Shown here: piece after piece, positions 546-33,980 of the stretch | Position numbering within the stretch: the stretch's first letter is position 1 | How the letters are laid out: each line of letters begins with the position of its first letter | DNA from: an uncultured Gammaproteobacteria bacterium | Lineage (GTDB): Bacteria; Patescibacteriota; Patescibacteriia; Magasanikbacterales; UBA922 | DNA: 64,000 bases | Assembly (NCBI GenBank): GCA_964394405.1 | Contig: CAYMVY010000001.1 | Location: 345,236 to 409,235 of the forward strand | Direction: 5' to 3' | Made by a program: the position numbers and the translations under genes | The notes under the pieces: model-generated | Database searches by the model: none | What the model saw: only the letters and a program-made list of their open reading frames with translations | Told to the model about the DNA's origin: nothing

Positions 546-2942
546 TTAGAAAGGAATACGGTCACCATTTTTATCTTCCCCTTCTTCTGGAACAGAGGAA
601 TCATCTTCGAGATCAGAGTCTTCATCCGCTGACTCATCTGCTTCATCTTCAATAGATTCATCTTCATCCACATCCTCAGCATCTTCATCTTCAATAGTGG
701 TGACTGAATGTGGTGCTTCAAACACATTATGTTTTGCGCCAGAATCGATTGTACCATGAAGCTCGTCCCTTGTCATGAGAATTTCTCGTGCTTTTGCTCC
801 ACTCCCTGGCCCAATGACACCTGCTTCTTCAAGTTCATCGAGGACCCGCGCAGCTCGCGCATATCCTATCTTCAGTCGTCTCTGTAGTAGAGAAGCACTT
901 GCTTTTCCGCTCGTGATTACTTCTTTTTTTGCCTCTTCAAACAGAGGATCCTGATCATCGCTTGGTCCTCCAAATAGATTCATGGTACCACTTTTTTGCT
1001 GAGAAATAATACTGTCGTCATACTCAGGCTCTTCATCACCTCGGAGATACTCAACCACATCTTTCATTTCTTCTTCAGAAATAAATGCTCCCTGGATACG
1101 CACCGGCTTCCCAAGTTCGGCGGTAAGGTACAACATATCCCCACGACCAATAAGTTTTTCAGCACCCGGACAATCAAGGATGGTGCGGGAATCAATAAGA
1201 GAGGCAACGGAGAATGCGATACGTCCAGGGATATTTGCTTTCATGAGACCGGTGATAACATCAACACTTGGTCGTTGTGTCGCGACAACGAGGTGAATTC
1301 CGACCGCACGCGCCATCTGAGCAAGGCGAATAATTCCTGCTTCAATTTCGTTTGCAGCTGTTGCCATGAGGTCTGCAAGTTCGTCAATAATAAATACGAT
1401 ATGCGGAATTTTATTGTCAGGATGTTTTGCATTATACGACGTAATGTCTCGTGATCCGGCGCTTGCAAGAAGTTCAAATCGTCTTTCCATTTCCCCGATT
1501 GACCATTTGAGTGCATTGATGGTTTGTTGTGTATTAGTAATAACCGGAGTTAGGAGATGTGGAATGCCATTGTAGAGTGTTAGCTCCACGCGTTTTGGAT
1601 CCACCATGATCATGCGGAGAGTTTCTGCAGTGTTTTCAAAAAGCAAACTCATAATAATCGTATTCACACACACTGTTTTTCCAGATCCTGTTGCTCCAGC
1701 AATCAGAAGATGGGGCATGCGTGGTAAATCTGCAAACCATACTTTTCCCGCTACGTCCTTTCCTAGTGCGATTGAAAGATTGTGTGGACGATTTTTGAAT
1801 TCTTTTGATTCAAGCAATTCACGGAATGAAACAAGTGCGGTTTTTTGATTCGGTACTTCAATTCCGACCAGTGCTTGTCCAGGAATTGGAGCCTCAATAC
1901 GGATTGGGTGAGCAGCAAGCGCAAGAGCGAGATCGTTTGAGAGGGCAGTAATGCGGGAGAGTTTAACGCCTTTTGAAGGCTTGAGAGAATACTGAGTCAC
2001 GGTCGGGCCGACGCGAATTTCTCCCATATCAACGTCAATACCAAATTCCGAGAGCGTGCTTTTGATAATTTCTGCATTACCTTTGATGTCTCCGCTGGTA
2101 GGCTTACTTTTTTTATCAACGAGGATATCAAGTGGTGGAAGATTTTTGATAATCACACGCTTACTCCATACATCACCCGAAGATTTTTCTTCCTCTTCTT
2201 CGTCTTCATCTTCAGTATCTTCTTCCTCTGAATCTTCTGTTTCTTCAGTATCATCCTCCTCGTCATCTTCATCTGCTAATTCTCGTGATGCAAATGAACT
2301 CTGTGTTTCTGATGTGTCAGGATCACTCTCCTCGTCATCTGATTCATCGTATGATCCTTTAATCTGCATAGAGTTCTTCTGCCCTCGCATGCGGGTAAAA
2401 GCTCCGTTTGCAACATTTCCTGTAGAAGAGAATAGCGTACGGAGTGTGGTGATAAATACATGCAGGGCGCGCTCAAAAATAAAAAATATTGAAATAATCA
2501 ATATACCTACTAAAATAACGTAACTCGCGATAATTCCCAGATAGGTTGAAACAGGATAGGCGAGCATACCCGCTACACCACCTCCGTTGCCTTCAAGAGC
2601 CTCTCGCCACATGTCAGGCGCCCCGAATTGCATGTGAATAATGCTGGAAACTGAAACAAAAAAGAGAATAAAGCCAAATATTCGAAATCCTCTCCCACCT
2701 TCTTCTTCATCTCGTTCTCTGACTAGGTGCCACGCGCCGAATACAAGTAGTATAGGGGTAATATAGCGTAGTTCCCCAAATAGGAAACTGAGGACATATT
2801 CATTGAGTATTGTTCCGACAACCCCAGCTTTGTTAAAAAAACTAAGGGTGACAATTACGGTTAAAATAAGAAAAATAACCGCAATGACCCCATCTGAGAG
2901 GGTTGGATCAAGCTTTCGTTCGATCTTTTTGCCGCGTGACAT
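546..2942 (-). CDS. ftsK: DNA translocase FtsK/SpoIIIE
   Basis: 798 aa. N-terminal multi-TM region, a long acidic Asp/Glu/Ser/Thr-rich linker, a motor domain with Walker A GATGSGKT and a C-terminal gamma-like winged helix (LLQRRLKIGYARAARVLDELEEAGVIGP). It also has an extra acidic C-terminal tail. Confidence 0.93.
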   Translation of the reverse strand: MSRGKKIERKLDPTLSDGVIAVIFLILTVIVTLSFFNKAGVVGTILNEYVLSFLFGELRYITPILLVFGAWHLVRERDEEEGGRGFRIFGFILFFVSVSSIIHMQFGAPDMWREALEGNGGGVAGMLAYPVSTYLGIIASYVILVGILIISIFFIFERALHVFITTLRTLFSSTGNVANGAFTRMRGQKNSMQIKGSYDESDDEESDPDTSETQSSFASRELADEDDEEDDTEETEDSEEEDTEDEDEEEEEKSSGDVWSKRVIIKNLPPLDILVDKKSKPTSGDIKGNAEIIKSTLSEFGIDVDMGEIRVGPTVTQYSLKPSKGVKLSRITALSNDLALALAAHPIRIEAPIPGQALVGIEVPNQKTALVSFRELLESKEFKNRPHNLSIALGKDVAGKVWFADLPRMPHLLIAGATGSGKTVCVNTIIMSLLFENTAETLRMIMVDPKRVELTLYNGIPHLLTPVITNTQQTINALKWSIGEMERRFELLASAGSRDITSYNAKHPDNKIPHIVFIIDELADLMATAANEIEAGIIRLAQMARAVGIHLVVATQRPSVDVITGLMKANIPGRIAFSVASLIDSRTILDCPGAEKLIGRGDMLYLTAELGKPVRIQGAFISEEEMKDVVEYLRGDEEPEYDDSIISQQKSGTMNLFGGPSDDQDPLFEEAKKEVITSGKASASLLQRRLKIGYARAARVLDELEEAGVIGPGSGAKAREILMTRDELHGTIDSGAKHNVFEAPHSVTTIEDEDAEDVDEDESIEDEADESADEDSDLEDDSSVPEEGEDKNGDRIPF

Positions 2943-2980
2943 AGTAATAATTTAGTCGGTTGAAGGGTTTATTGGTAAGC

Positions 2981-3076
2981 CCAAAACTCAAAGTTCAAAA
3001 CGTAAAACTATAACCAAAAACTCAAAAGTTTTGACATTTGAGATACGGTTTTGACATTTGAGTTTTGAGTTTTGCA
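2981..3076. repeat. AT-rich palindromic intergenic repeat (AAACTCAAAAC family), copy 1
   Basis: ccaaaactcaaagttcaaaacgtaaaactataaccaaaaactcaaaag / ttttgacatttgagatacggttttgacatttgagttttgagttttg: an imperfect long inverted repeat. Related copies are at 13614-13740, 18444-18560 and 42448-42575. Confidence 0.6.
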
Positions 3077-3550
3077 TTTATATACATAACTTCAAGATAG
3101 TATTGTACCATATTTTCACCCTAATACGGAGCTCATACTGGGGTATAGCATAGGAAATGTGTATAAATTTGGCTAAATTAAGGGAACTGTGGATAATTAT
3201 GGGGATAGATAGGGATGAATAGGGGATAAATATAGACTATTTTTATCTTTTTTTAGCCAAAATATGGACTTTCTTGACAAAAAATGAACCCTAGTCTCTC
3301 ATTTGACAATACCATAGAAAAAGAGTATTCTAACGGCATTGTGTTCAAAGGAAAAAAGACAAATAATTCTGGTCTTCTCGCACCTATCTCAAGGGCAGGC
3401 GAATTATCCGGATATCCCATGCCTCGATTCCATATCTACAATTAAATTGTAATTACCTCCTTTTTAATAAAAGGGATTTTTTGTTGTCTTAACTTATCCT
3501 GTGCATCCATTTGGGAATGGAGTGTGCAGTTAATCAATAGTATACAGCGT

Positions 3551-6500
3551 ATGGTACCTCTCTTTCGCCGCCAACCTCTAAAATCGACTGAGCGCACATT
3601 TTTTACCAAACTAAGAGACGCAATCACTGCGCCTGATTTGATTGAGGTACAAAAAAATTCGTATGAGTGGTTTTTCAAAGAAGGACTTCGCGAATTGTTT
3701 GATGAACTGTCTCCAATCACTGATTTCACAGGTCGCGATCTTGAATTGTATTTTGAAGACTACTATCTCGACGAGCCAAAATTTGATGAAGTTACCTGCC
3801 GCAACAAAAATATCACCTACGAAGCACCGCTTCGTGTGAATGTTCGAATGACAAATAAAAGAACCGGAAAATCAGACAAACAGGAAATTTATTTGGGTGA
3901 TGTTCCTCTGATGACTGCTCGCGGTACGTTCATGGTGAATGGAATTGAGCGTGTAATTGTTTCTCAGCTTATTCGAAGCGCGGGAGCATTTTTCACTGCA
4001 GAGATGGTGCGCGGACGACGATTTTACGGAGCAAAGATTATTCCAAACCGCGGTGCGTGGATAGAAATCGAAACTGATCAGAATAATGTGCTCTGGATCA
4101 AGGTTGATCGCAAAAGAAAAGTTGCTGCAACCTCGCTCCTACGGGCATTTGGGTATGCAGACGATGAAAAAATTAAAGCAGCATTTGCTGATGTGAATAC
4201 ACATCCCAATATTGACTATGTGGATGCAACACTCAAAAAAGATACCGCAAAATCTGAAGAGGATGGATTGATCGAAGTGTATCGCCGTATTCGTCCGGGG
4301 GACTTGGCAACTGCAGAAAATGCACGTAGTCTGATTCATGCCATGTTTTTCAATTTTGATCGCTATGATCTCGGCAAAGTGGGTGTCTATAAATTTGATA
4401 CTAAATTTGATTTGGGTTTGACTGAAGAAGCGTATGATTCAAAAGAAGAGCGTGTATTGTCTCCCGAAAAATTATTAAAAGTTCTCAAAGAAGTTATCCG
4501 ATTAAATGTAACCCAGGAAGAAGCAGATGATATTGATCATTTGGGTAATCGTCGTGTACGTGGAGTGGGAGAACTCGTTCAGAATAGATTTAGAATCGGT
4601 CTCGCTCGTATGGAGCGCATTGCAAAAGATCGTATGAGTACGATGGAAGTAGATACGATTGCTCCAAACAAATTAATCAACGCTCGACCAGTGATTTCAG
4701 TGATTCGTGAATTTTTCATGAGTTCACAGCTCTCACAATTCATGGACCAGGTAAACCCGCTTGCTGAACTTGAACACAAACGCCGTGTATCAGCATTGGG
4801 TCCTGGTGGATTGTCTCGTGACCGAGCAGGATTCGAAGTACGTGACGTACACCGTACTCACTATGGACGTATTTGTCCGATTGCAACTCCTGAAGGACCA
4901 AATATCGGTTTGGTAGGACACTTGTCAACGTACGCAAAAGTCAATCGTTTTGGATTCCTTGAAACTCCCTATAGAAAAGTATTGCGCGAAGTTCCTAATG
5001 AAGCAAAATTTACCGAAGGTGAATATTCTCTCGAAGAAATCAAAGGAATGGTAGGCGCAGGAGAAGAGATTACTGCAGCAATTGCCAAGAAATTAGAATC
5101 AGACAAAAAGTTATCTGTAATCAAAGTGAAGCCTCGAGTAACTGATGAAATCGTATACCTGAACTCATTCCAGGAAGAACGATCGATTACTGCATCGGCT
5201 ACTACACGGATGGACGATCGAGGATATTTCCTTGATGAAAAAACTCCTGCTCGTGTGCATGGTGAAGCGCAGGTAACTGAAGTTGCAAGTATCCAGTATA
5301 TTGATGTTGCATCAAACCAGATTTTATCTCTCGCAACAAGTATTATTCCATTTTTGGAACACGATGATGCGACTCGCGCCTTGATGGGAACAAACATGCA
5401 GAGACAGGCAGTGCCTTGTATCAAGCCAGAACCACCACTGGTCGGAACCGGAGTTGAGAAGGCTGCTGCAGAAAATAGTGGGTACGTAGCAAAAGCTCCT
5501 GCTGATGGTGAAATTACCTATGTTGATGGACACCGAATCGAACTCACTGATAAAAAAGGGAAAGTGTATACCTGGGATCTGGGTAAATTCCTCCGCTCAA
5601 ACGCATCAAGCTGTATCAACCAAAAACCAACCGTTACTTTGGGTCAAAAAGTAAAGAAAGGACATCCAATGTCTGATGGACCAAGTATTAAAGATGGTGA
5701 ATTGGCATTGGGACAAAATGTATTGGTAGCCTACATGGTGTGGGATGGATTCAATTATGAAGATGCGGTTATCATCTCTGATCGTCTCGTAAAGGATGAT
5801 CGATACACCTCGATCCATATCGAAGATTATACAATTGATGTTCGTGAAACCAAGCTTGGAGAAGAAGTGATTACCAATGATATTCCGAATGTCAGTGAAG
5901 AAAAATTACGAAATCTTGATTCAGAAGGTATTGTTCGCATTGGTGCTGAAGTTCATTCAGGAGATATTTTGGTCGGAAAAATTACGCCAAAAGGAGAAAC
6001 TGAATTAACCCCTGAAGAGCGATTGCTCCGGGCAATTTTCGGAGAAAAAGCGCGCGATGTTCGTGATTCATCACTCTATCTCGAGCATGGTGAGCAGGGG
6101 AAAGTAATTGATGTAAAAATCTTCTCAGCAGAAGCTGGAGACAAATTACAGCCAGGTGTGATCAAACAAGTTCAGGTCACGGTTGCTGATATGCGAAAAA
6201 TCCAGGTAGGAGACAAAATGGCAGGTCGCCATGGAAACAAAGGTGTCATCTCACGTGTGGTCCCAGCTGAAGATATGCCATTCCTAGAAGATGGAACTCC
6301 GGTAGATATTATCCTCTCTCCATTGGGTGTTATTTCACGTATGAACTTGGGTCAATTGCTCGAGACCCATCTTGGTCTTGCGGCAAATGCGCTTGGGTAC
6401 AAAGCAGCAACACCAGTATTAAATGGAATTTTGGAAAGTCAAATTGAAGAAGAACTCAAAAAAGCAGGATTTCCAACTGATGGAAAATTGCAGCTCTATG

Positions 6501-18443: not shown

Positions 18444-18560
18444 TGAAAACTTAAATGTCAAAACTTAAAACTATAACTAAAAATTTAAAACTAGTTATTG
18501 AATTTAAAGTTTTTAGATTTAAGTTGCGGTTTTGACTTTTGAGTTTTACGTTTTGAGTCC
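18444..18560. repeat. AT-rich palindromic intergenic repeat (AAACTCAAAAC family), copy 3
   Basis: aaaacttaaatgtcaaaacttaaaactataactaaaaatttaaaac ... aaagtttttagatttaagttgcggttttgacttttgagttttacgttttgag. Confidence 0.55.
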
Positions 18561-18567
18561 GAATACT

Positions 18568-20142
18568 ATGTCTAAAACACAAAAACAACCTAAACAAATA
18601 CCATCCCCTACAGTCCTCATTATTCTCGATGGATTTGGTCTGGCTCCTGAGAAAAACGAAGGGAATGCGATTACCTCAAAAACCGCGCCGAATATTTTTG
18701 GGTATCTAAAAAAATATCCAAATTCAAAACTCAAAACTTCTGGTGAGCAGGTGGGACTGTTTCCCGGACAGATTGGAAATTCTGAGGCAGGACATTTGAA
18801 TATTGGAGCAGGAAGAATTGTAAAACAGGATTTGGTCTGCATTTCAGATTCAATCCATGATGGGACGTTTTTTAAAAATGAAGCATTCAAGCAGGCGCTC
18901 TTCCATGTAAAAAAATATAATTCCGCTGTTCATCTCATGGGACTTCTGACAGATGGGAATAGTGCCCACTCATATCCTGAACATGTCTACGCATTGCTTG
19001 AACTCTGCCGGAGAGAAGGAATTGACCGAGTGTATCTGCATCTATTTACTGATGGTCGTGACTCGGGCCCCCATGCAGCGGCTACATATTTGCATGAACT
19101 TCGTGGTCACATGCTCCATACTGAAAAAATTGCGACTATCATGGGTAGACTGTATGGCATGGATCGAAATAAAATATGGAGTCGTACTGAAGCCGCATAT
19201 GAAGCTATGGTCATGGGTATAGGGCACAAAGTAGCGAGCGCGGAAGAAGCTCTAGAGCAGGCGTATAATCGGGGAGAGACAGATGAATTTGTCACTCCAT
19301 CAGTCATGGTAGATGACAAGGGCAAACCGATTGCGTCAATCAATGACCATGATACTGTTATATTTTTCAATGCGCGGTCTGATCGTGCTCGTCAGATCAC
19401 CAAAGCATTTGTGCAAGATGACTTTAATAAACGGAATCCTGGGTCGTTCAAAAGAGTTAAAGTGCCCAAAAATATCAGATTTGTGGCGCTTACTGATTTT
19501 GGACCGGATCTTGAGCGAATACTCACCGTATTTCCTTCACCTGATGTGTACAATACCTTGCCTTTGGCACTTTCAAATTTTACACAAGTGTATATTGCAG
19601 AATCTGAGAAGTATGCACATGTTACCTATTTTATCAACGGTGGTTATGCTGAACCAGTCAATGGCGAAGATTGGATTAAAATAGAATCAAAGACAGTGGC
19701 TCATCATGATACCAAGCCAGAAATGGCAGCAAAAGAAATTACCAAAAAGGTTGTGGGACTGATGAAGAAAGACGCCTATCAGTTTTACTGTATCAATTAT
19801 GCGAATGCTGATATGGTAGGGCATACAGGCAACCTCAAAGCTGCAAAAACAGCAGTTACGACGATTGATACCTGTGTCGGAGAGATTGTTGATACGACCC
19901 TTGCAAAAGGTGGACAGGTGCTGATTGTCTCGGATCATGGTAATGCGGAAGAAATGAAAAATTTGAAAACAGGAGAAGTGGATACTGAACATAATCTGAA
20001 TCCTGTTCCCTGCATATTGATTCGCAATATAGTCAAGGGAATAAAATTGAAAGATGGTATTCTCGCAGATGTGGCGCCGACGATTATTAAAATGGTAGAA
20101 GGCAGGCAGCCACGAGAGATGACAGGTAAACCTTTATTTTAA
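18568..20142 (+). CDS. gpmI: 2,3-bisphosphoglycerate-independent phosphoglycerate mutase (iPGM), paralogue 1
   Basis: ILDGFG, GNSEAGHLNIGAGR (catalytic Ser), YANADMVGHTG and SDHGNAEE motifs. The track ORF begins 36 nt earlier at an upstream ATG. Confidence 0.9.
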   Translation: MSKTQKQPKQIPSPTVLIILDGFGLAPEKNEGNAITSKTAPNIFGYLKKYPNSKLKTSGEQVGLFPGQIGNSEAGHLNIGAGRIVKQDLVCISDSIHDGTFFKNEAFKQALFHVKKYNSAVHLMGLLTDGNSAHSYPEHVYALLELCRREGIDRVYLHLFTDGRDSGPHAAATYLHELRGHMLHTEKIATIMGRLYGMDRNKIWSRTEAAYEAMVMGIGHKVASAEEALEQAYNRGETDEFVTPSVMVDDKGKPIASINDHDTVIFFNARSDRARQITKAFVQDDFNKRNPGSFKRVKVPKNIRFVALTDFGPDLERILTVFPSPDVYNTLPLALSNFTQVYIAESEKYAHVTYFINGGYAEPVNGEDWIKIESKTVAHHDTKPEMAAKEITKKVVGLMKKDAYQFYCINYANADMVGHTGNLKAAKTAVTTIDTCVGEIVDTTLAKGGQVLIVSDHGNAEEMKNLKTGEVDTEHNLNPVPCILIRNIVKGIKLKDGILADVAPTIIKMVEGRQPREMTGKPLF

Positions 20143-20145
20143 TGT

Positions 20146-21723
20146 ATGTCACGACCAAAACCAGTAGTACTTGCTATACTTGATGGATGGGGAGTCGCAC
20201 CAGCAAGCGACGGGAATGCGATTGAGCGAGCCCTGACGCCGAACATGGATCGTTTTGTACGCGAATACCCAGCCATGACACTCTATGCTTCGGGGAATGA
20301 AGTAGGTTTGTCATACGGAGAAATGGGGAATTCAGAAGTAGGACATTTGAATATCGGTGCTGGTCGCGTATATTATCAGACCTTTCCTCGGATCAATAAA
20401 ACTATTGTTGATGGAACATTTTCTCAAAACAAGGCATTTTTGAGTGCAGTAGAACATGTTCGTGAACATAAATCGAGTCTGCATCTGGTAGGCCTGGTGA
20501 GTCCGGGAAACGTACATGCGAGCCAGGACCATCTCTATGCGTTGCTAGAATTTGCCAAGAAAAATAAAATTAAGAATGTGTTTGTACATGCGATTCTTGA
20601 TGGAAGAGACACGCTGTATAATAGTGGCAAAGATTTTATTGGAAAACTAGAAGAGAAGATGAAAAAGATTGGAGTGGGTGAAATTGCGTCGTTGTCGGGG
20701 CGTTATTATGCAATGGACCGTGATAATCGATGGGATCGAATCGAGCGCGCATATCGAGCGATGGCTGAAGGAGTTTCTGAGACATATCACAAAGATCCTC
20801 GTGAAGCACTCGATATATCATATGAAAAAAAAGTATATGATGAAGAATTCATACCAGTCGTGATTGGAAAAGAAGGGAAGCCCACTGCTCGGATTGAATC
20901 AGGAGACGCGGTGATCTTTTTTAATTTCCGCCCTGACCGTGCCAGACAACTCACCAAAGCATTTGTATTGCCTGGATTTGATAAATTCAAGCGTGAATAT
21001 CTGAAAGATTTGCTTTTTGTAACTATGACTGAATATGAAAAAGAAATTCCCGTCGTAGTCGCATATCCTCCAGTCGTCGTGCATAATTGTCTTGCAGAAG
21101 TAGTGAGTAAAGCGGGGCTCACCCAATTCCACGTGGCAGAAACAGAAAAATACGCGCATATTACGTTCTTTTTGAACGGCACAGTCGAAGAACCTTTTGA
21201 AGGGGAAGAGCGTGCAATTGTACCTTCTCCAAATGTATCTTCGTATGATAAGGCACCAGAAATGTCGGCTGCAGAAGTTACCAAGAAAGTAATTCATGCA
21301 ATTGAATCAGACGCATATGACGTGATTCTGGTAAATTATGCGAATGCTGATATGGTGGGACATACCGGAGATCGTGACGCCACGATTACTGCATGTGAGG
21401 CAGTAGACAAAGGGCTGGGTAAAATTGCTGAATATGTAGAAGCAAAAGGTGGGGTGCTTCTTATCACTGCTGATCATGGAAATGCTGAGGAAGTGGTGAA
21501 TTTGAAGACCGGTGAAAAAGACAAGGAGCATAGTAATAACCCAGTACCACTACTTATTATTGGGAAAGAATTCAGAGGACACGCAGGTCCGGGCGGTGAC
21601 GCTCCTGAGGGTGACTTGAGTCTGGTGCATCCTGTCGGAATTCTTGCTGATGTAGCGCCGACTGTATTAAAAATTCTTGGACTTGAGCAACCGCCGGAGA
21701 TGACGGGGAGATCGTTGATATAA
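20146..21723 (+). CDS. gpmI: 2,3-bisphosphoglycerate-independent phosphoglycerate mutase (iPGM), paralogue 2
   Basis: ILDGWG, GNSEVGHLNIGAGR, YANADMVGHTG and ADHGNAEE. It starts 4 nt after paralogue 1. The two proteins share the catalytic motifs but are otherwise divergent. Confidence 0.9.
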   Translation: MSRPKPVVLAILDGWGVAPASDGNAIERALTPNMDRFVREYPAMTLYASGNEVGLSYGEMGNSEVGHLNIGAGRVYYQTFPRINKTIVDGTFSQNKAFLSAVEHVREHKSSLHLVGLVSPGNVHASQDHLYALLEFAKKNKIKNVFVHAILDGRDTLYNSGKDFIGKLEEKMKKIGVGEIASLSGRYYAMDRDNRWDRIERAYRAMAEGVSETYHKDPREALDISYEKKVYDEEFIPVVIGKEGKPTARIESGDAVIFFNFRPDRARQLTKAFVLPGFDKFKREYLKDLLFVTMTEYEKEIPVVVAYPPVVVHNCLAEVVSKAGLTQFHVAETEKYAHITFFLNGTVEEPFEGEERAIVPSPNVSSYDKAPEMSAAEVTKKVIHAIESDAYDVILVNYANADMVGHTGDRDATITACEAVDKGLGKIAEYVEAKGGVLLITADHGNAEEVVNLKTGEKDKEHSNNPVPLLIIGKEFRGHAGPGGDAPEGDLSLVHPVGILADVAPTVLKILGLEQPPEMTGRSLI

Positions 21724-23008: not shown

Positions 23009-23122
23009 CAGTGCGGTTTTTGAGACTTTTTGCGTGGTGCAAAGCCCATAATTGAGCCAGATTTAGCCTAATTCTTGCTAAATATAGAAGAGTACGATAG
23101 AATTTTAGGTATACTGAACTTT

Positions 23123-26100
23123 ATGAAAGAACGAGAACTGCCCAAAGCTTACGAACCGCATATATACGAGGATAAGATCTATACACGCTGGGAAAAAGGC
23201 GGTTTTTTTGCGCCTGAGAGCATTCCAGGGTGGGTCAAGGACGATACGAAGAGAGAGTCTTTTAGTATGGTATTACCTCCTCCAAATGTGACTGGAACCC
23301 TCCATATGGGTCATGCGGTCATGCTCGCAGTACAGGATGTGATGGCGCGCTATCATCGGATGAAGGGTGACAAAACCCTCTGGATTCCAGGAACCGATCA
23401 TGCCGCAGTCGCAACTGAGTCAAAAGTAGAAAAAATGTTGATTGAAGGCGGAATGAAAAAACCAAAAGCAGAGCTGGGGCGTGAAAAATTTTTGAAACAC
23501 GTGGAAAAATTTGCGAGTGAATCGCATGACACTATTGTGAACCAAGCAAAAAAAATGGGGGCGTCCCTCGATTGGTCTCGTGAAGCATTTACTCTCGATA
23601 AAGCACGAAATACTGCAGTAAATACCTTATTCAAAATGATGTACGATGACGGGCTTATTTATCGAGGATACCGAGTAATCAATTGGTCAGTCAAAGGGCA
23701 ATCCACCTGCAGTGATGATGAATTGGTCTATGTCGAGCGACCAGGGAAATTATATTATTTCACATACGGACCAGAATGTCCGATTACGATTGCGACAACG
23801 AGACCAGAAACTAAGCTCGGGGATACGGCAATTGCAGTGAATCCAAAAGGAAAATGGAAAAAATATATTGGAAAAACTTTTGTTATAAAAAACTTCGGTC
23901 AAACCGGACATGTTTTAAATTTGAAAGTAATTGCAGATGCGGGAGTTGATGACACATTTGGTACCGGAGCTCTCGGGGTCACTCCGGCGCATAGCCAGAC
24001 TGATTTTGAAATCTATCAGAAGAATAAAGATATTGGTTTGATTCAGGTAATTGGCGAGGACGGGAACATGACTGGTAATGCTGGAAAAGCATATGCAGGT
24101 TTAACAGTTGAAGAAGCCCGAAAGAAAGTAGTTGCGTGGTTGGAAAAGCAAAAACTGCTTGAGAAAACTGAAGATACGATGCAGAATGTGGGAACCAGTG
24201 ATCGCTTCGGTGATGTTGTAGAACCATTACCAAAAACTCAATGGTTTATTGAGGTGAATAAAAAAGTAAAAAGTAAAAACGCAAAAGTAAAAAGTTTTGA
24301 GGGTAATTTGAGTTTGAAAGAGCGGATGCAGCGAGCAGTTCGTGATGGTCATATAAAAATTATCCCTGAGCGATTTGATAAAACCTATTTTCATTGGATT
24401 GATAATTTACGTGACTGGAATATTAGTCGACAGATTTGGTATGGACATCAGATTCCGGTGTGGTACTGCAGAGAAAGTAAAAAGGAAAAAGGTAAAAGTA
24501 AAAACTGTGGCGAAATGTTTGTGTTAACAGAAAAACTTACCCAGTGTCCGAATTGTGGAGGTAGTGTTGAACAAGATTCAGACACACTCGACACGTGGTT
24601 TTCTTCAGGTTCGTGGACATTCTCTACACTTGGTTGGCCCACGACTGAAGTTCAGTTTATTCGTCACGGTGAGGCAGAAAATAGTGTAGAGAAAATAGTA
24701 AGTGATATTAATGATCGAAATGTATACAACCTCACGAAAAAAGGCGAAAAACAAATTCAAGAGTTGGCAAAAATAATGAAAAATAAACCAGAAGTTATTA
24801 TTACTTCCCCAATCGCTCGAGCGAAAGAAACTGCTGAGATTTTGAGTAAGAAATTAGGGAGTACTCTTGTTGAAGATGCACGAATTCGAGAAGTCGGAGT
24901 GGGGGAGTTCAATAGTAAAAGTGAAGATGAATTCGATGAATTCCGTGCAGGCAACAACTGGATGAAGAGTAATCCAAAAGGGATTGAGTCTTATGTTTCA
25001 ATGCGTAAGCGCACCCATGAATTCATGGCAGAAATTCTTGAAAAATATCGAGGTAAACGGATTGCAATTGTTTCGCATGGTGACCCGATTGAAGTTATGA
25101 AGCAATTCGGTACTGAAGTCTATACCAATGAATGGGATATCCAGGATCGGGGCACTCTCGAAACCCGAATGTTTGGCTCTGATAATAAGCAGAATGATGA
25201 TCTTGAAGTATTTCATCCCACCTCAGTTCTTGAAACCGGTTATGATATTCTCTTCTTCTGGGTTGCGCGCATGATTCTCATGAGCACCTACGCACTTGGT
25301 GAAGTACCATTCAAGACCGTCTATCTTCATGGTCTGGTACGTGATGAAGAAGGGAGAAAAATGAGCAAGTCTCTCGGGAACATTATTGATCCTCTCGACA
25401 TGATCAAGAAATATGGAACTGATGCAACCAGACTTTCACTTCTCATTGGCGGAACACCGGGGAATGATATGCGATTGTCAGAAGAAAAGATCGCAGGCTT
25501 TAGAAATTTTACGAATAAACTATGGAATATTAGCCGATTCATGTTGTTAAATATTGAAAAGCCAGTAAGAGATATCAAACAACCTAAGGCAAAAACAGCG
25601 GCAGATGAATGGATTTTGTGGAAATTAAACGAAGTTGTATCAAAAATGAATACATCATTTGATGCATATCAATTCTCAATTGCTGGTGAAACATTGCGTG
25701 ATTTTACCTGGGGAGAGCTTGCTGACTGGTATCTGGAAATTGCAAAAGTGGAAGGTGAGAAGAGTGAGATACTAAATTATATTTTGAATACCATTCTCAA
25801 ACTTTGGCATCCCTTCATGCCCTTTGTCACTGAACAAATATGGCAGGAAATATATGGTGGAACAATGCTTATAGTAGAAGAGTATCCAACAATAGAAAAA
25901 AGCAAGAAAAAGACAAGTGATGTAGTGTTTGTTGATACAACCCTTCGAAATATTATCACCAAGATTCGTTCAATTCGCACTGAATACAAGATCGAGCCAG
26001 CAAAGAAAATAATAGTGAGCATGAAAATGAAAGGCACAAACACATTACTCAAAGAATATTCGCCAGTGTTGATTCGATTGGCAGGGCTCGAAACTATTAC

Positions 26101-26377
26101 ACATGAAAAGATTGAAAAAGCTGTTTCATTTATTGAATCTGGAATAGAGGTAGACATAGATTTGAGCAGTGCAATCGATACGAAGAAAGAAAAAATACGA
26201 ATCGAAAAAGAGATCGCGAGTGTTGAACCATATGTAATACAACTTGAGAAAAAATTAGCAAACAAAGAGTTTGTAAAAAATGCGCCAAAAGCAGTGGTTG
26301 AGATTGAAAAAAAGAAGCTAGAAGAAGCGCGGCAGAAACTAGAGTCATTGAATGGGCAGTTAAAACAACTAACCTAG
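23123..26377 (+). CDS. valS: valine--tRNA ligase with an inserted histidine-phosphatase-like domain
   Basis: Class I HIGH region (PPPNVTGTLHMGHA), CP1 editing domain (TTRPET, GTGALGVTPAHSQTDFE), KMSKS, and C-terminal coiled coil. An in-frame insertion of about 184 aa at nt 24645-25195 carries FIRHGEAEN ... IAIVSHGDPI. Two Lys-rich micro-insertions are also present. The track ORF starts at a TTG at 23075. The ATG at 23123 (MKERELPKAYEP...) matches ValRS N-termini. Confidence 0.9.
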   Translation: MKERELPKAYEPHIYEDKIYTRWEKGGFFAPESIPGWVKDDTKRESFSMVLPPPNVTGTLHMGHAVMLAVQDVMARYHRMKGDKTLWIPGTDHAAVATESKVEKMLIEGGMKKPKAELGREKFLKHVEKFASESHDTIVNQAKKMGASLDWSREAFTLDKARNTAVNTLFKMMYDDGLIYRGYRVINWSVKGQSTCSDDELVYVERPGKLYYFTYGPECPITIATTRPETKLGDTAIAVNPKGKWKKYIGKTFVIKNFGQTGHVLNLKVIADAGVDDTFGTGALGVTPAHSQTDFEIYQKNKDIGLIQVIGEDGNMTGNAGKAYAGLTVEEARKKVVAWLEKQKLLEKTEDTMQNVGTSDRFGDVVEPLPKTQWFIEVNKKVKSKNAKVKSFEGNLSLKERMQRAVRDGHIKIIPERFDKTYFHWIDNLRDWNISRQIWYGHQIPVWYCRESKKEKGKSKNCGEMFVLTEKLTQCPNCGGSVEQDSDTLDTWFSSGSWTFSTLGWPTTEVQFIRHGEAENSVEKIVSDINDRNVYNLTKKGEKQIQELAKIMKNKPEVIITSPIARAKETAEILSKKLGSTLVEDARIREVGVGEFNSKSEDEFDEFRAGNNWMKSNPKGIESYVSMRKRTHEFMAEILEKYRGKRIAIVSHGDPIEVMKQFGTEVYTNEWDIQDRGTLETRMFGSDNKQNDDLEVFHPTSVLETGYDILFFWVARMILMSTYALGEVPFKTVYLHGLVRDEEGRKMSKSLGNIIDPLDMIKKYGTDATRLSLLIGGTPGNDMRLSEEKIAGFRNFTNKLWNISRFMLLNIEKPVRDIKQPKAKTAADEWILWKLNEVVSKMNTSFDAYQFSIAGETLRDFTWGELADWYLEIAKVEGEKSEILNYILNTILKLWHPFMPFVTEQIWQEIYGGTMLIVEEYPTIEKSKKKTSDVVFVDTTLRNIITKIRSIRTEYKIEPAKKIIVSMKMKGTNTLLKEYSPVLIRLAGLETITHEKIEKAVSFIESGIEVDIDLSSAIDTKKEKIRIEKEIASVEPYVIQLEKKLANKEFVKNAPKAVVEIEKKKLEEARQKLESLNGQLKQLT

Positions 26378-26828: not shown

Positions 26829-27845
26829 ATGGAGACACTAAGTCCTGGAGCTGCTGAAGTAGATATTTCTGCGTCAGAATTTGCAAAGCAGGAAAAAACA
26901 AAACGAGTTATCAGTGAAATTACCCGTATTCGTGAGTTGTATCATCAAATATGCAACATAGACCAGAAAGTTGCAGCATATAAATCAAAGGTTGGCGCAT
27001 TGCGAGATGACGAAGAAGTGCCAACTGAGTGGGTTGAAGATATGCGAAAGATTGTACATGCTGATCCACATAAAGTGGAAGATTTTATGATGCCGCCCGG
27101 AGCTTTATTTGCTGAAATATATGGGCGTAACATAAGTCATGATATCAAAAACATACAACAGCGGTTAGTTTTTTATCAATTCGCAATTGATTCTCTCGAA
27201 GATGGTGATCTAAGACAATTTGTGAATGATTGGGAATACGCGGCAGCAAATTGGGAAGCGTATTACTATACCATGCTCGATTATGCGGCTCGTGCAAAAA
27301 ATGTGATTGAAGGTGGCAAAGGGGACATTATCGATCCTCGGGTACTGGAGACCGAAGGAAAAAAAGTCGATGCACGTGAATTGTTGGATGTGCTGATAAG
27401 ATTTATCAAAGATAGAACCAAAAAACATGAGGGAGTATCAGTTCACTATCCAGATTCTTTGCCGGATAATATAGTTGCCGATATCGCACCAGGGGTTGTG
27501 TTTAATAAATTAGCGAATATTTTATTAAATCCTATCCGAAAGACTGATACGATCCGGGCAAAAAATGTCTGGATTGAAGTGTCTGTAGACGGTGAGGGTG
27601 AAAAGAAAAATCTGGTAATTACCGTGAGTGATGATGGAATTGGGATGGATGAGGAGATAAAGAGTCATATTTTTGAAGGTGGCTTTAGCACTACCAAAGG
27701 TAAAGGTATTGGTCTTGCATATGCAGACACGCTTTTTAATCAAATGAATTGTACAATACATGTCGAAAGTAACCCTGCGTCTGATCGGGCAGGAAACGGT
27801 GAAGTGCATACCACGTTTACTGTCGTGATTCCGCTTTCTGCTTGA
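26829..27845 (+). CDS. histidine-kinase-like ATPase (HATPase_c) domain protein, soluble
   Basis: The C-terminal region has an N-box (LANILLNPIRKT), G1 (VSDDGIGMD) and G2 (GKGIGL). It has no TM segment and no clear DHp His box. Confidence 0.55.
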   Translation: METLSPGAAEVDISASEFAKQEKTKRVISEITRIRELYHQICNIDQKVAAYKSKVGALRDDEEVPTEWVEDMRKIVHADPHKVEDFMMPPGALFAEIYGRNISHDIKNIQQRLVFYQFAIDSLEDGDLRQFVNDWEYAAANWEAYYYTMLDYAARAKNVIEGGKGDIIDPRVLETEGKKVDARELLDVLIRFIKDRTKKHEGVSVHYPDSLPDNIVADIAPGVVFNKLANILLNPIRKTDTIRAKNVWIEVSVDGEGEKKNLVITVSDDGIGMDEEIKSHIFEGGFSTTKGKGIGLAYADTLFNQMNCTIHVESNPASDRAGNGEVHTTFTVVIPLSA

Positions 27846-31280: not shown

Positions 31281-32389
31281 AAATCCCCGAATTTATTTCA
31301 CTTGCGGATACTAAAAAAATAGAGGGTCTGAGGTCAATAGGTGTTATTATACGTGATGAAATACGAAGTCAGACTGATGAATTATGCGAAATACGCAATC
31401 CACAACTTCGTGATACTCCAGAGGAGTTTGGTCAAAAAAAAGATGAGTTCTTTAAAAACTATCAATCTGAAAGCGTGTACTGTTACTTACCATGGCGAAA
31501 CATTTGTATCCGAATACTTTCCAAAGAATTGTATCATGAATTACATACAGCGCGGAATAAGAATCTAATTACAAAAGACGAACAAAAAAATTTTAGAGAA
31601 GCTCGAGTTGCGATTGCTGGTATGAGCGTGGGGAGTAATATCGCGCGAGTATGTGCTATGCAGGGCGGTCCCTGGCGCCTGAGTTTGGCTGATGCTGATA
31701 CGTACAGTATTTCAAATTTTAATCGGGCACTGGGGGGTATCCATTATATCGATGTCAAAAAGGTAGAGGCAGTCACCGAGCAACTATATGAGATTGATCC
31801 ATTTTTACAGGCCAGTACATTTTCAGAGGGCATAACAGAAACAAATCTTGAGGAGTTTATGACTCTTGATGGTAAGCCAGTGGACATACTTATTGAAGAA
31901 ATCGATTCGCTCACAATTAAAATTGCATTACGTAAATATGCAAGTGCACATCGTATTCCAGTGGTTAGTATTACGGATAATGGGGATGGTGTCTTGGTAG
32001 ATATCGAGAGATATGATGAGGACTATACATTTGAGCAGTTTATGGACCGGTTAAAAGAGGTGAAATTGGGAAATACAGGCGAAAGACCCCGCATCCAAGA
32101 TATTGCACGTGCCGTTACCAATTTTATTGGAGCAGAAGACATTGAGACACGGATGCTCGATTCAGTGGCTCATGTGGGGAAGGATTTATATTCATGGCCA
32201 CAGCTCGGGAATGCTGCAATATTGGCAGGGAGTGTAGGTTCATTTGCAATCCGACATATTGCAAATGGTGGACTCAAAAAAAGTGGTAGAATAGCGATTT
32301 CGCTTTCAAAGATTTTTGGTATCTTTGATAGTGATGAGAAAGAACGAAGAGAATCTTTATTATCGTATTATCATTATGAAAAAAAATAA
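31277..32389 (+). CDS. ThiF/MoeB/E1-like adenylyltransferase-fold protein with an N-terminal extension of about 110 aa
   Basis: Rossmann motif VAIAGMSVGSNIARVCAMQG followed by LSLADADTYSISNFNR, the E1/ThiF signature (D-x-D ... N-L-N-R). 370 aa. Confidence 0.6.
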   Translation: MKIPEFISLADTKKIEGLRSIGVIIRDEIRSQTDELCEIRNPQLRDTPEEFGQKKDEFFKNYQSESVYCYLPWRNICIRILSKELYHELHTARNKNLITKDEQKNFREARVAIAGMSVGSNIARVCAMQGGPWRLSLADADTYSISNFNRALGGIHYIDVKKVEAVTEQLYEIDPFLQASTFSEGITETNLEEFMTLDGKPVDILIEEIDSLTIKIALRKYASAHRIPVVSITDNGDGVLVDIERYDEDYTFEQFMDRLKEVKLGNTGERPRIQDIARAVTNFIGAEDIETRMLDSVAHVGKDLYSWPQLGNAAILAGSVGSFAIRHIANGGLKKSGRIAISLSKIFGIFDSDEKERRESLLSYYHYEKK

Positions 32390-33980
32390 AATAATTATTG
32401 ATGGTGAACACTTGGGACTAGAAGATGTGCATGTGGTGGCGCAGGATTTTGTGCAGGTTGCGGTTTCAAAAGAAAGCAAAAAAAAGATACATTTATCAAG
32501 AAAAATGGTTGATTCCGCAGTGGAAGACGAAAAAGTAGTATATGGAGTTACTACTGGATTTGGACCATTCGTCTCAGTTTTGATCCCCAAAAAATATCAG
32601 ACAGAGTTACAGGAAAATTTGATTAGAAGTCATTCAGCAAACGTAGGACCATTATTTTCTGTTGAAGAAACCCGAGCAGCTATGTTGCTTCGTGTTAACG
32701 CATTTTCAAAAGGATACTCAGGGGTGCGTCATGAATTGGTCGATTTACTCACTGAAATGTTAAATAAAAATATCCATCCATGTATTCCCCAGTGGGGATC
32801 AGTAGGAGCAAGTGGAGACTTAACACCATCATCACATATCGCTCTCGCTATGATGGGGGAAGGAATGGTTGAATATAAGGGTAATATAATTCCTGCAAAA
32901 GAAGCACTCACTCATGCGGGACTTACGCCAATACAGTTTAAGGCAAAAGAAGGGCTGGCATTGATAAACGGTACGACCATGATGACCGGTGTAGCAAGCC
33001 TTCAGTTATACGATTCGTGGAATCTTATAAAAAACGCAGAAATTATTAGTGCGTTATCGATAGAGGCATTACAAGGATCGATGGAGCCATTTTTACCTCG
33101 TGCGCATGCAGTAAAACCACATCCAGGACAGCTAAAGGTGGTTAAAAATTTAAATGCCTTACTGCGTGATAGTAAATTGGTTTGGAATTCAAAAGAAGTA
33201 GACCGTATCAAGAAAGAATTACAGGCAAGAATTAAAGAAAATCAAGAAGTTTTTGAATCCGGTGTACATGTGCAAAATGTCTATTCATTGAGAGCTGTGC
33301 CTCAGATACTTGGCGCTGTACGTGATGCACTTGAATATATAACCAGGCAAATTATTACCGAGATGAATTCAGCAAATGATAATCCGTTATTTTTTCCTGA
33401 TTTAGGTATTTCATACCAGGGCGCACATTTCCATGGACAACCAGTGGCTATTCCAATGGATGTATTATCAATTGTACTTACTGAGATTGGCGTGCTGTCA
33501 GAAAGACGTTTGAATAAAATTCTAGACCCAGTTCGCAATAATGGTCTTGCGCCTTTTTTGGCACGTGGAAAATCAGGTTTGCGCTGCGGACTGGAAGGTG
33601 CGCAATATGTTGCAACCGCACTTGTGGCGGAATGTCGGACTTTGTGTAATCCAGCGTCTATACAGTCTATTCCTTCAAATGGTGAGAATCAGGACGTGGT
33701 GAGTATGGGACTAGTTGCAGCGCGGAAAGCTCGCGATATAAAAGAAAAAATCGAGTATATTTTGGCAGTTGAGCTTCTCGGAGCGTGTGAAGCGATGGAG
33801 GAAAGAGAAAAGAAAAAAATGTCATCTGCAGGACGTATGGTCTATGACCTGGTTCGCAGAAAAATAAAACCATATGACTCCGATCAAATCATGCATACTA
33901 ATATTGAAGAGGTGCGAGACATGATTCATAGCGGAGCTTTAGTCTCTCTAATAGAGAAAAAGCTTAAAATTATTCTTTAA
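32376..33980 (+). CDS. aromatic amino acid ammonia-lyase/aminomutase family (HAL/PAL-type, MIO cofactor)
   Basis: GSVGASGDLTPSSHIA contains the Ala-Ser-Gly triad that forms MIO. The HAL/PAL fold is conserved throughout. The ATG at 32376 is chosen because the track ORF start overlaps the upstream gene. Confidence 0.8.
   Translation: MKKNKIIIDGEHLGLEDVHVVAQDFVQVAVSKESKKKIHLSRKMVDSAVEDEKVVYGVTTGFGPFVSVLIPKKYQTELQENLIRSHSANVGPLFSVEETRAAMLLRVNAFSKGYSGVRHELVDLLTEMLNKNIHPCIPQWGSVGASGDLTPSSHIALAMMGEGMVEYKGNIIPAKEALTHAGLTPIQFKAKEGLALINGTTMMTGVASLQLYDSWNLIKNAEIISALSIEALQGSMEPFLPRAHAVKPHPGQLKVVKNLNALLRDSKLVWNSKEVDRIKKELQARIKENQEVFESGVHVQNVYSLRAVPQILGAVRDALEYITRQIITEMNSANDNPLFFPDLGISYQGAHFHGQPVAIPMDVLSIVLTEIGVLSERRLNKILDPVRNNGLAPFLARGKSGLRCGLEGAQYVATALVAECRTLCNPASIQSIPSNGENQDVVSMGLVAARKARDIKEKIEYILAVELLGACEAMEEREKKKMSSAGRMVYDLVRRKIKPYDSDQIMHTNIEEVRDMIHSGALVSLIEKKLKIIL

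Follow-up and report, generated by a model that had tools for sequence, protein, structure and literature searches.

A branch-1 histidine-phosphatase domain embedded in the valyl-tRNA synthetase of a Patescibacteria genome

Aminoacyl-tRNA synthetases are among the most conserved enzymes, and it is rare for their core to contain additional catalytic domains, which in most cases have been a sign of new biology (editing or signalling, for example). The valyl-tRNA synthetase (ValRS) of T. thermophilus (PDB entries 1GAX, 1IVS and 1IYW) and the bacterial ValRS share a common architecture and common motifs, and in the canonical enzyme residues E471 and E472 are adjacent. Here we describe a valS gene from an uncultured bacterium of the Patescibacteriota (Magasanikbacterales in GTDB), located in a stretch of 64,000 nucleotides (contig CAYMVY010000001.1 of assembly GCA_964394405.1, positions 345,236 to 409,235), which is referred to below as the window. 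The product of this gene has the whole ValRS architecture and its motifs (562-bit sequence match to the T. thermophilus enzyme), but a 184-amino-acid (aa) enzyme domain with the features of a histidine phosphatase sits between the two canonical residues.

The inserted domain resembles the small branch-1 histidine phosphatases PhoE/YhfR (1H2E, 1EBB), CobC (6E4B, 6NRU), PspA (4IJ5, 4IJ6), Rv2419c GpgP (4PZ9, 4QIH) and the riboflavin-pathway HFP (9MMH) in length (~190-210 aa), fold (template modelling (TM) scores of 0.81-0.86) and catalytic residues; however, these proteins are free-standing and only 17-29% identical to the insert. NCBIfam already curates one class Ia synthetase family with an additional enzyme domain, under the 1100-position profile NF040702 (ileS_w_GNAT). 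The post-insert part of this profile aligned to aa 695-930 of the window protein (125 bits, cut-off 1999), but in that case the host is isoleucyl-tRNA synthetase (IleRS) and the guest is GNAT, an N-acetyltransferase. In the RNase H/acid phosphatase of the Rv2228c type (NF005567), a CobC-like His_Phos_1 domain is fused to a nucleic-acid enzyme. The phosphatase half of this model matched the insert with 76 bits, below the cut-off of 326; the Rv2228c type is an end-to-end fusion with another partner, whereas the window protein has an internal insertion. The CP1 editing domain and inteins are also folded domains that interrupt the Rossmann fold without breaking it. CP1, however, is found universally and has the aminoacyl ester as its target, and inteins splice themselves out, whereas the domain described here is a phosphatase restricted to certain lineages and remains part of the mature protein. 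In a sequence search of the PDB and in a Foldseek search with the full-length model, all matches were canonical ValRS, IleRS or LeuRS, none with such an insert, and full-text literature searches found no description of a histidine phosphatase inside ValRS or IleRS. The original prediction, made from the letters of the window, knew of no described ValRS with this fusion. This held in the full-text searches; in the databases, automated annotation by JGI had already named one homologue 'valyl-tRNA synthetase/broad specificity phosphatase PhoE'. The fusion is real, widespread and uncharacterised, and the combination as such has been recorded by machine.

The analysis of the host confirmed that the window valS encodes an intact ValRS. 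The open reading frame (23075..26377, forward strand) comprises 1100 aa counted from a TTG at 23075; translation from the ATG yields 1084 aa, in keeping with the ~1085 aa first estimated, and this product is identical to database protein P0001, which the homologue search found in both NCBI and Logan. On the 1084-aa protein, Pfam assigned tRNA-synt_1 in two stretches, together with Anticodon_1 (828-963) and Val_tRNA-synt_C (1019-1083). The NCBIfam valS equivalogs NF004349 and TIGR00422 matched it, each in two pieces, with 935.3 bits (cut-off 704) and 859.2 bits (cut-off 612.1), respectively. The class I signatures, the CP1 editing motifs, the anticodon-binding domain and the C-terminal coiled coil were all present, with the conservation of host motifs judged on an alignment of 86 ValRS sequences. 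The full-length AlphaFold2 (AF2) model was confident (predicted local distance difference test (pLDDT) 86.5, predicted TM score (pTM) 0.81, blocks of the insert mostly 88-96) and superposed on 1GAX with a target-normalised TM score of 0.85. In comparison with a relative (L004), the ValRS core had 84% aa identity and a ratio of nonsynonymous to synonymous substitution rates (dN/dS) of 0.088, indicating purifying selection, consistent with a functional ValRS. No second valS was found within the 64-kb window.

In the alignment with 1GAX, window residues 5-507 corresponded to residues 2-471 and window residues 690-1082 to residues 472-860, leaving ~183-184 extra aa between adjacent canonical residues; on the valS profile, the N-terminal part covered positions 2-463/474. 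The insertion falls in a loop at the protein surface that leads from the DTWFSS...LGWP helix to the FHPTSVL strand, where insert-free relatives have a linker of 6-7 aa (e.g. KETDDL) in place of aa 507-690. The original prediction had thus correctly described ValRS as normally contiguous at this point. It had placed the domain at 24645-25195, which was right as to location, and alignment with orthologues refined the boundaries to 24641-25192; its residue numbers, 524-707, follow the TTG start, whereas aa 507-690 are counted from the ATG at 23123. That the domain is in frame within ValRS was borne out by Pfam, NCBIfam and the 1GAX alignment, and that the frame and the flanking ValRS motifs are intact by the equivalog scores, the invariant motif columns and the full-length model. 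The composition showed no break across the insert region.

Pfam identified the insert as His_Phos_1 (PF00300), at aa 512-659 with an E-value of 3.6e-29 in the whole protein; scanned alone, the insert matched this family with an E-value of 1.6e-30 and 106.7 bits, far above the gathering cut-off of 21.7. The motifs by which it had first been recognized, RHGEAEN, SPIARAKETAEI and VSHGD, are all present, and the six catalytic positions (R8, H9, N14, R60, E84 and H146 in insert numbering) were invariant across 14 aligned inserts at the same site, which are 42-67% identical to the window insert. The domain modelled alone with AF2 gave a pLDDT of 94 and a pTM of 0.91. The best Foldseek match was 9MMH (29% identity), and further matches included PhoE (1H2E, TM score 0.85, probability 1.00), PspA (4IJ6_B, TM score 0.86), Rv2419c GpgP and CobC; in the full-length model, host and insert are predicted to fold together. 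The first and last strands of the insert occupy residues 2-8 and 173-178 in the model. The N-terminal junction is tight, with the first strand of the phosphatase starting two residues past the ValRS helix, and ~10 residues connect the last strand back to the host. Between the window and L004 the insert showed 67% aa identity (84% for the core), a dN of 0.23 and saturated dS. The insert thus evolves faster than the core but, since synonymous sites were saturated at this dN, it is constrained too. On the basis of sequence and model, the insert is predicted to be a complete, catalytically competent and apparently active branch-1 histidine phosphatase, which is closest in structure to small phosphatases of the PhoE/CobC/PspA/GpgP type.

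The domain had first been described as dPGM/SixA-like; the branch-1 fold and the catalytic residues stood, but membership in dPGM or SixA did not, as indicated by scores of 109.9 bits for NF038349 (dPGM_arch; cut-off 225), 20 for TIGR01258 (pgm_1; 81.7), 20.5 for PRK01295 (316) and 36.2 for SixA (74.5). The CobC alpha-ribazole phosphatase (77.7 bits, cut-off 162.9) and the PspA phosphoserine phosphatase (61.3 bits, cut-off 350) were rejected in the same way. Since no model of a characterised subfamily reached its NCBIfam cut-off on the insert, none of these subfamilies can be used to assign a substrate specificity. A scan of the insert against PADLOC-DB gave no defence family at E-values up to 0.01.

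We also surveyed related proteins and genomes and found insertions of this domain to be widespread in both ValRS and IleRS of Patescibacteria. Named relatives came from 'Candidatus Magasanikbacteria' and Patescibacteria. A His_Phos_1 domain was present in 35 of the 120 best ValRS matches; the match lists favour insert-bearing proteins, since the insert itself adds score. It occurred at two sites flanking the DTWFSS helix: site A, after LGWP and 17 residues downstream of DTWFSS, as in the window protein (approximately 24 of the 35, of which 21 labelled), and site B, the hairpin between PVWY and QDPDTLDTWFSS (11 proteins), where some inserts sit between the two CxxC halves of the zinc knuckle. 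GTDB species representatives were scanned with the site-A profile and the best 80 of 403 related stretches were kept; in ~47 of these 80 loci the domain lay inside open frames of 1130-1550 aa that were classified as IleRS by their motifs. Four such frames checked against TIGR00392 scored 818-882 bits (cut-off 621) and contained PF00300 once or twice each. The records were labelled Saccharibacteria, Paceibacterota, Peribacteria, and Yonath-, Nomura-, Wolfe-, Taylor- and Buchananbacteria, and the insert-bearing Patescibacteria IleRS were of type 2, with DUF5915 (e.g. L009, L016, L020, L023 and L055). In IleRS the usual place of the domain is the site-B equivalent, in the zinc-knuckle segment that precedes D-x-WF-x-SG. 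The IleRS of Peribacteria, with 1500-1550 aa, carry two copies in tandem, and L055 IleRS (1368 aa) has one copy on each side of the D-x-WF-x-SG helix (sites A and B). When 1.84 billion cluster representatives (50% clustering) were searched with the junction region, 46 of the top 150 matches were ValRS or IleRS that contain the domain, in the arrangements A, B, tandem A, tandem B and A+B. A word-indexed search with the insert alone listed 18 free-standing proteins with up to 38% identity; the ValRS chimeras were not among them. Among the inserts found, His_Phos_1 strongly outnumbered every other domain type. Two ValRS, P0016 (1184 aa) and P0113 (1155 aa), combine the site-A phosphatase with extra site-B inserts of ~83 aa and ~100 aa, and five others have a 17-aa expansion at site A.

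The catalytic residues are not kept everywhere at site B. In seven ValRS (P0030, P0032, P0149, P0158, P0163, P0166 and P0183) a variant 'xVH(G/S)TTxDNE' replaces RHGE, with loss of the Arg, and several clusters at 50% identity share this recurrent variant. A deletion of the Glu region is combined with AHGES in P0038, P0051 and P0101, and the second His is absent from P0047 and P0052. It is possible that these degenerate domains are pseudo-phosphatases. A non-catalytic role would then exist somewhere in the domain family, but not obviously in the window protein.

To examine the history of the domain, neighbour-joining trees were built from 182 columns with 200 bootstrap replicates. The site-A inserts formed a clade (68% support) beside free-standing Patescibacteria proteins, and the site-B inserts split into two groups, B1 (52%) and B2 (100%). 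Neither A, B1 and B2 nor all embedded domains together were grouped in any of the 200 replicates. To account for the distinct insertion sites, no fewer than two events are needed in ValRS and two in IleRS, and the trees, with moderate support, suggest more insertion events than this minimum.

A tree of the host core, built with the insert excised, placed insert-bearing and insert-free proteins side by side. P0002, which has the insert, clustered with the insert-free P0008 and P0010 (100% bootstrap, 93-94% core identity), and P0009, also with the insert, clustered with the insert-free P0012 and P0013 (100% bootstrap); the four insert-free proteins never formed one group. The loci of P0002 and P0008 are ~93% identical in DNA over 9 kb, with perfect synteny, and differ in one block spanning the site-B hairpin and the site-A insert. 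The contents of this block differ as well, with a Cys4 knuckle versus a short hairpin alongside the presence or absence of the insert, and DNA identity is also reduced just upstream of it. We read this difference as probable allelic replacement by homologous recombination and not as a simple deletion. Even ValRS that share 87-94% identity differ in the form of this hairpin upstream of DTWFSS, which is swapped together with the phosphatase insert: the window protein, P0002 and P0005 have a Cys4 knuckle, P0003 has a longer hairpin free of Cys, and the hairpin of P0008 and P0010 is short. The segment from PVWY to FHPTS behaves as a variable cassette, and we infer that the phosphatase insert is an accessory trait, which close relatives do without.

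The closest free-standing relatives of the insert (188-204 aa, 37-45% identical) lie next to synthetase genes. In all five loci examined the phosphatase gene is located just downstream of argS, and in two of them (L040 and L007) ileS follows shortly downstream. In L040 the stop codon of the phosphatase gene overlaps the start of ileS, which encodes an insert-free IleRS, and in L007 ileS lies within 1.5 kb (Table 1). Conversely, argS is directly upstream of ileS in ~20 loci whose IleRS has the embedded domain. According to these gene orders, the phosphatase gene is found in one of two states, next to ileS as a gene of its own or as a part of IleRS or ValRS. Such a pattern is a classical sign of a functional link, and at the same time it gives a simple route to capture. 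The L007 IleRS (5006-6451) has another guest, a NUDIX domain inserted in the CP1/editing region at aa 342-467 of the visible part. Among 120 matches to the truncated L007 query, mostly fragments, PF00293 was seen in no further IleRS, so this Nudix-in-IleRS arrangement looks like a one-off. Two other phosphatase contexts were met among the free-standing proteins and other fusions: a Chloroflexota protein (L068, 473-aa frame) with two tandem His_Phos_1 domains, and an Actinomycetota protein (L066, 647-aa frame) with the RNase H-His_Phos_1 fusion of the Rv2228c type. Within the 64-kb window there is no second His_Phos_1 or Nudix box.

Taken together, these sequence and model data make it rather probable that the window gene encodes a working ValRS carrying a catalytically competent, PhoE/CobC/PspA-like phosphomonoesterase that is functionally tied to class Ia synthetases. 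One protein would then possess two active sites, one for aminoacylation and one for phosphatase activity. From what is known of the family, catalysis would proceed via phospho-His515, with R514, R566 and H652 binding phosphate and E590 serving as the acid. The phosphatase would act outside the core aminoacylation chemistry, on a substrate connected with what IleRS and ValRS handle; the tie to these two enzymes is proposed because of the recurrence of the domain and the gene linkage. We would rank a small phosphomonoester or nucleotide first among candidate substrates, given the PhoE/CobC-like chemistry and the acidic surface, a phosphorylated tRNA 3' end second, and a phosphoprotein third. As in class Ia structures, the DTWFSS helix presumably starts in the amino-acid pocket, which would put the junction at a distance of a few tens of angstroms from where synthesis takes place. 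An apparently active second enzyme has been repeatedly captured by two paralogous synthetases across Patescibacteria, and the genomes of these bacteria are so tiny that the sequence they retain probably has a use. The phosphatase would add a new accessory step to tRNA charging or repair if its target is a nucleotide or a tRNA end.

Several observations weigh against a dedicated role of this kind. Both sites are permissive loops that also hold unrelated inserts, short or of unidentified type, and these loops together with gene proximity could account for part of the recurrence. Catalytic residues are lost in some site-B lineages, so that it is not in every case the catalysis that has been preserved. 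With a median pI of 5.8, the site-A inserts are acidic, as are their free-standing relatives, which does not point to an RNA-binding module. Finally, the domain trees are neighbour-joining trees of 182 columns with moderate support only.

The strongest alternative, which we regard as less probable but worth serious consideration, is a passenger fusion, i.e. a housekeeping phosphomonoesterase without a mechanistic tie to aminoacylation. A phosphatase gene near ileS, tolerant loops and close domain termini would provide the route, and the D-x-W-F-x-S flanks would enable transfer between ileS and valS. The free-standing gene between argS and ileS, the presence in the same loops of inserts of 17 aa, 83 aa and ~100 aa, the dispensability of the insert in close relatives, the position of the terminal strands, which suits an inserted domain, and the acidic character shared with the free-standing proteins are all in line with this explanation. 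However, a mere passenger does not readily explain why two synthetases acquired domains from several non-sister lineages, at two sites and in some cases as tandem copies, why His_Phos_1 is so dominant among the inserts, or why the catalytic residues were kept over long divergence; moreover, adjacency followed by fusion is classically taken as a sign of functional coupling. Should the phosphatase nevertheless be independent of its host, the locus would show clearly how, in nature, an essential gene can take up a domain and exchange it as a cassette, which is useful for protein engineering.

A more specific proposal, to which we give rather little weight, is that the phosphatase is a cis-acting repair or immunity module that strips a blocking phosphate so that charging resumes. 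Its target at the CCA end of tRNA could be a 3'-phosphate, what is left of a 2',3'-cyclic phosphate or, following a Nudix step, a 3'-pyrophosphate; alternatively, it could be phospho-Ser/Thr set on the KMSKS region of the enzyme itself by a toxin kinase. The accessory, patchy and cassette-like distribution, the repeated capture by two synthetases beside the helix lining the aminoacylation site, and the Nudix genes beside two free-standing copies, along with the Nudix domain in one IleRS, are circumstantially consistent with such a module. If it is true, a novel quality-control or anti-toxin step would be built into the synthetase.

Unlikely, in our view, is a non-catalytic function of the domain as a ligand sensor, docking surface or structural brace. 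Site-B lineages do retain the domain after losing the RHG Arg, the second His or the Glu region, but all catalytic residues are invariant in the window protein and the 14 aligned site-A inserts, which favours the catalytic reading.

Two further readings are very improbable: that the insert is a selfish or mobile element of the intein or homing kind, or that it is the cofactor-dependent phosphoglycerate mutase of the cell, located within ValRS. The patchy distribution among close relatives would fit the former, and the archaeal dPGM model is the best NCBIfam match of the insert. However, PF00300 is the only Pfam family on the insert, and there is no Hint or endonuclease domain, no flanking repeats and no Cys/Ser...His-Asn splice boundary (the insert begins with TTEV and finishes with DNKQ, and the next residue is N), so that the original prediction was right to set an intein aside; the allelic cassette swap explains presence and absence. 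As for the mutase, the dPGM scores are below their cut-offs and two iPGM genes are already present just upstream of valS. An assembly or annotation artefact, in which a chimeric join or frameshift merged a phosphatase gene with valS, is effectively refuted, because two assembly sources contain one and the same 1084-aa protein and dozens of independent assemblies show this in-frame architecture (50-82% identity), which excludes misassembly without recourse to reads, and because both junctions fall exactly at the canonical linker and synteny is conserved.

Table 1. Features of the window valS gene (window positions) and gene orders around free-standing phosphatase genes (positions within each locus)
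Feature	Position	Strand	Remarks
valS coding sequence	23123..26377	+	ATG start at 23123; 1084 aa, then TAG stop
N-terminal ValRS part: Rossmann first half, CP1 editing domain, CP2/CP3 region, DTWFSS helix	23123..24640	+	1GAX residues 2-471
HIGH signature as HMGH, aa 61-64	23303..23314	+	H61, G63, H64 invariant in 86 ValRS
Editing motifs TTRPET (aa 225-230) and GTGALGVTPAHS (aa 280-291)	23795..23995	+	Positions invariant or nearly so
Cys-rich hairpin PVWYC...NC...CPNCGG, aa 445-480 (site B)	24455..24562	+	No insert here in the window ValRS
Helix DTWFSSGSWTFSTLGWP, aa 490-506	24590..24640	+	Ends at 5' junction of the insert; model helices 491-496, 498-501
Branch-1 histidine phosphatase insert, aa 507-690 (site A)	24641..25192	+	
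RHGEAEN, aa 514-520: R514, nucleophile H515, N520	24662..24682	+	Invariant in 14 site-A inserts
SPIARAKETAEI, aa 562-573: R566, second phosphate-binding Arg	24806..24841	+	
REVGVGE: E590, presumed general acid	24887..24907	+	
VSHGD, aa 650-654: H652, second catalytic His	25070..25084	+	
ValRS resumption NDDLEVFHPTSVLETGYDILFFWVARM: linker and Rossmann strand	25193..25273	+	
C-terminal ValRS part: Rossmann second half, anticodon-binding domain, coiled-coil arm	25193..26374	+	1GAX residues 472-860
KMSKS signature, aa 746-750	25358..25372	+	K746, S748, K749 invariant (86-sequence ValRS alignment)
L040: argS, phosphatase, ileS	phosphatase 2974-3540; ileS 3534 onward		Phosphatase stop overlaps ileS start; IleRS insert-free
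L007: argS, phosphatase, IVP, Nudix, ileS	phosphatase 2953-3546; Nudix 4533-5045		ileS within 1.5 kb
L001: argS, 56-aa open reading frame, phosphatase, Nudix	phosphatase 1653-2267; Nudix 2285-2689		
L011: argS, phosphatase, hemerythrin-like open reading frame			
L024: argS, phosphatase			

Some further observations concern the surroundings of valS. The two iPGM genes stand in tandem at window positions 18532-20142 and 20146-21723, after gap, pgk, a SIMPL-domain gene and eno, and the same pair is present in the relatives L002 and L084. At 26829-27845, between a thioredoxin-like gene and tyrS, the window encodes a 338-aa protein with only a C-terminal HATPase_c domain; the syntenic loci of L002 and L084 have no gene there, which indicates a lineage-specific insertion. 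An aromatic amino acid ammonia-lyase (PF00221, E-value 5.6e-173) is encoded at 32316-33980, an unexpected catabolic enzyme for a small Patescibacteria genome. Finally, the GTDB records of L004, L005, L006 and L008 contain ValRS or IleRS of the Patescibacteria type under the title 'uncultured Gammaproteobacteria bacterium', which is probably a taxonomic mislabelling of metagenome-assembled genomes.

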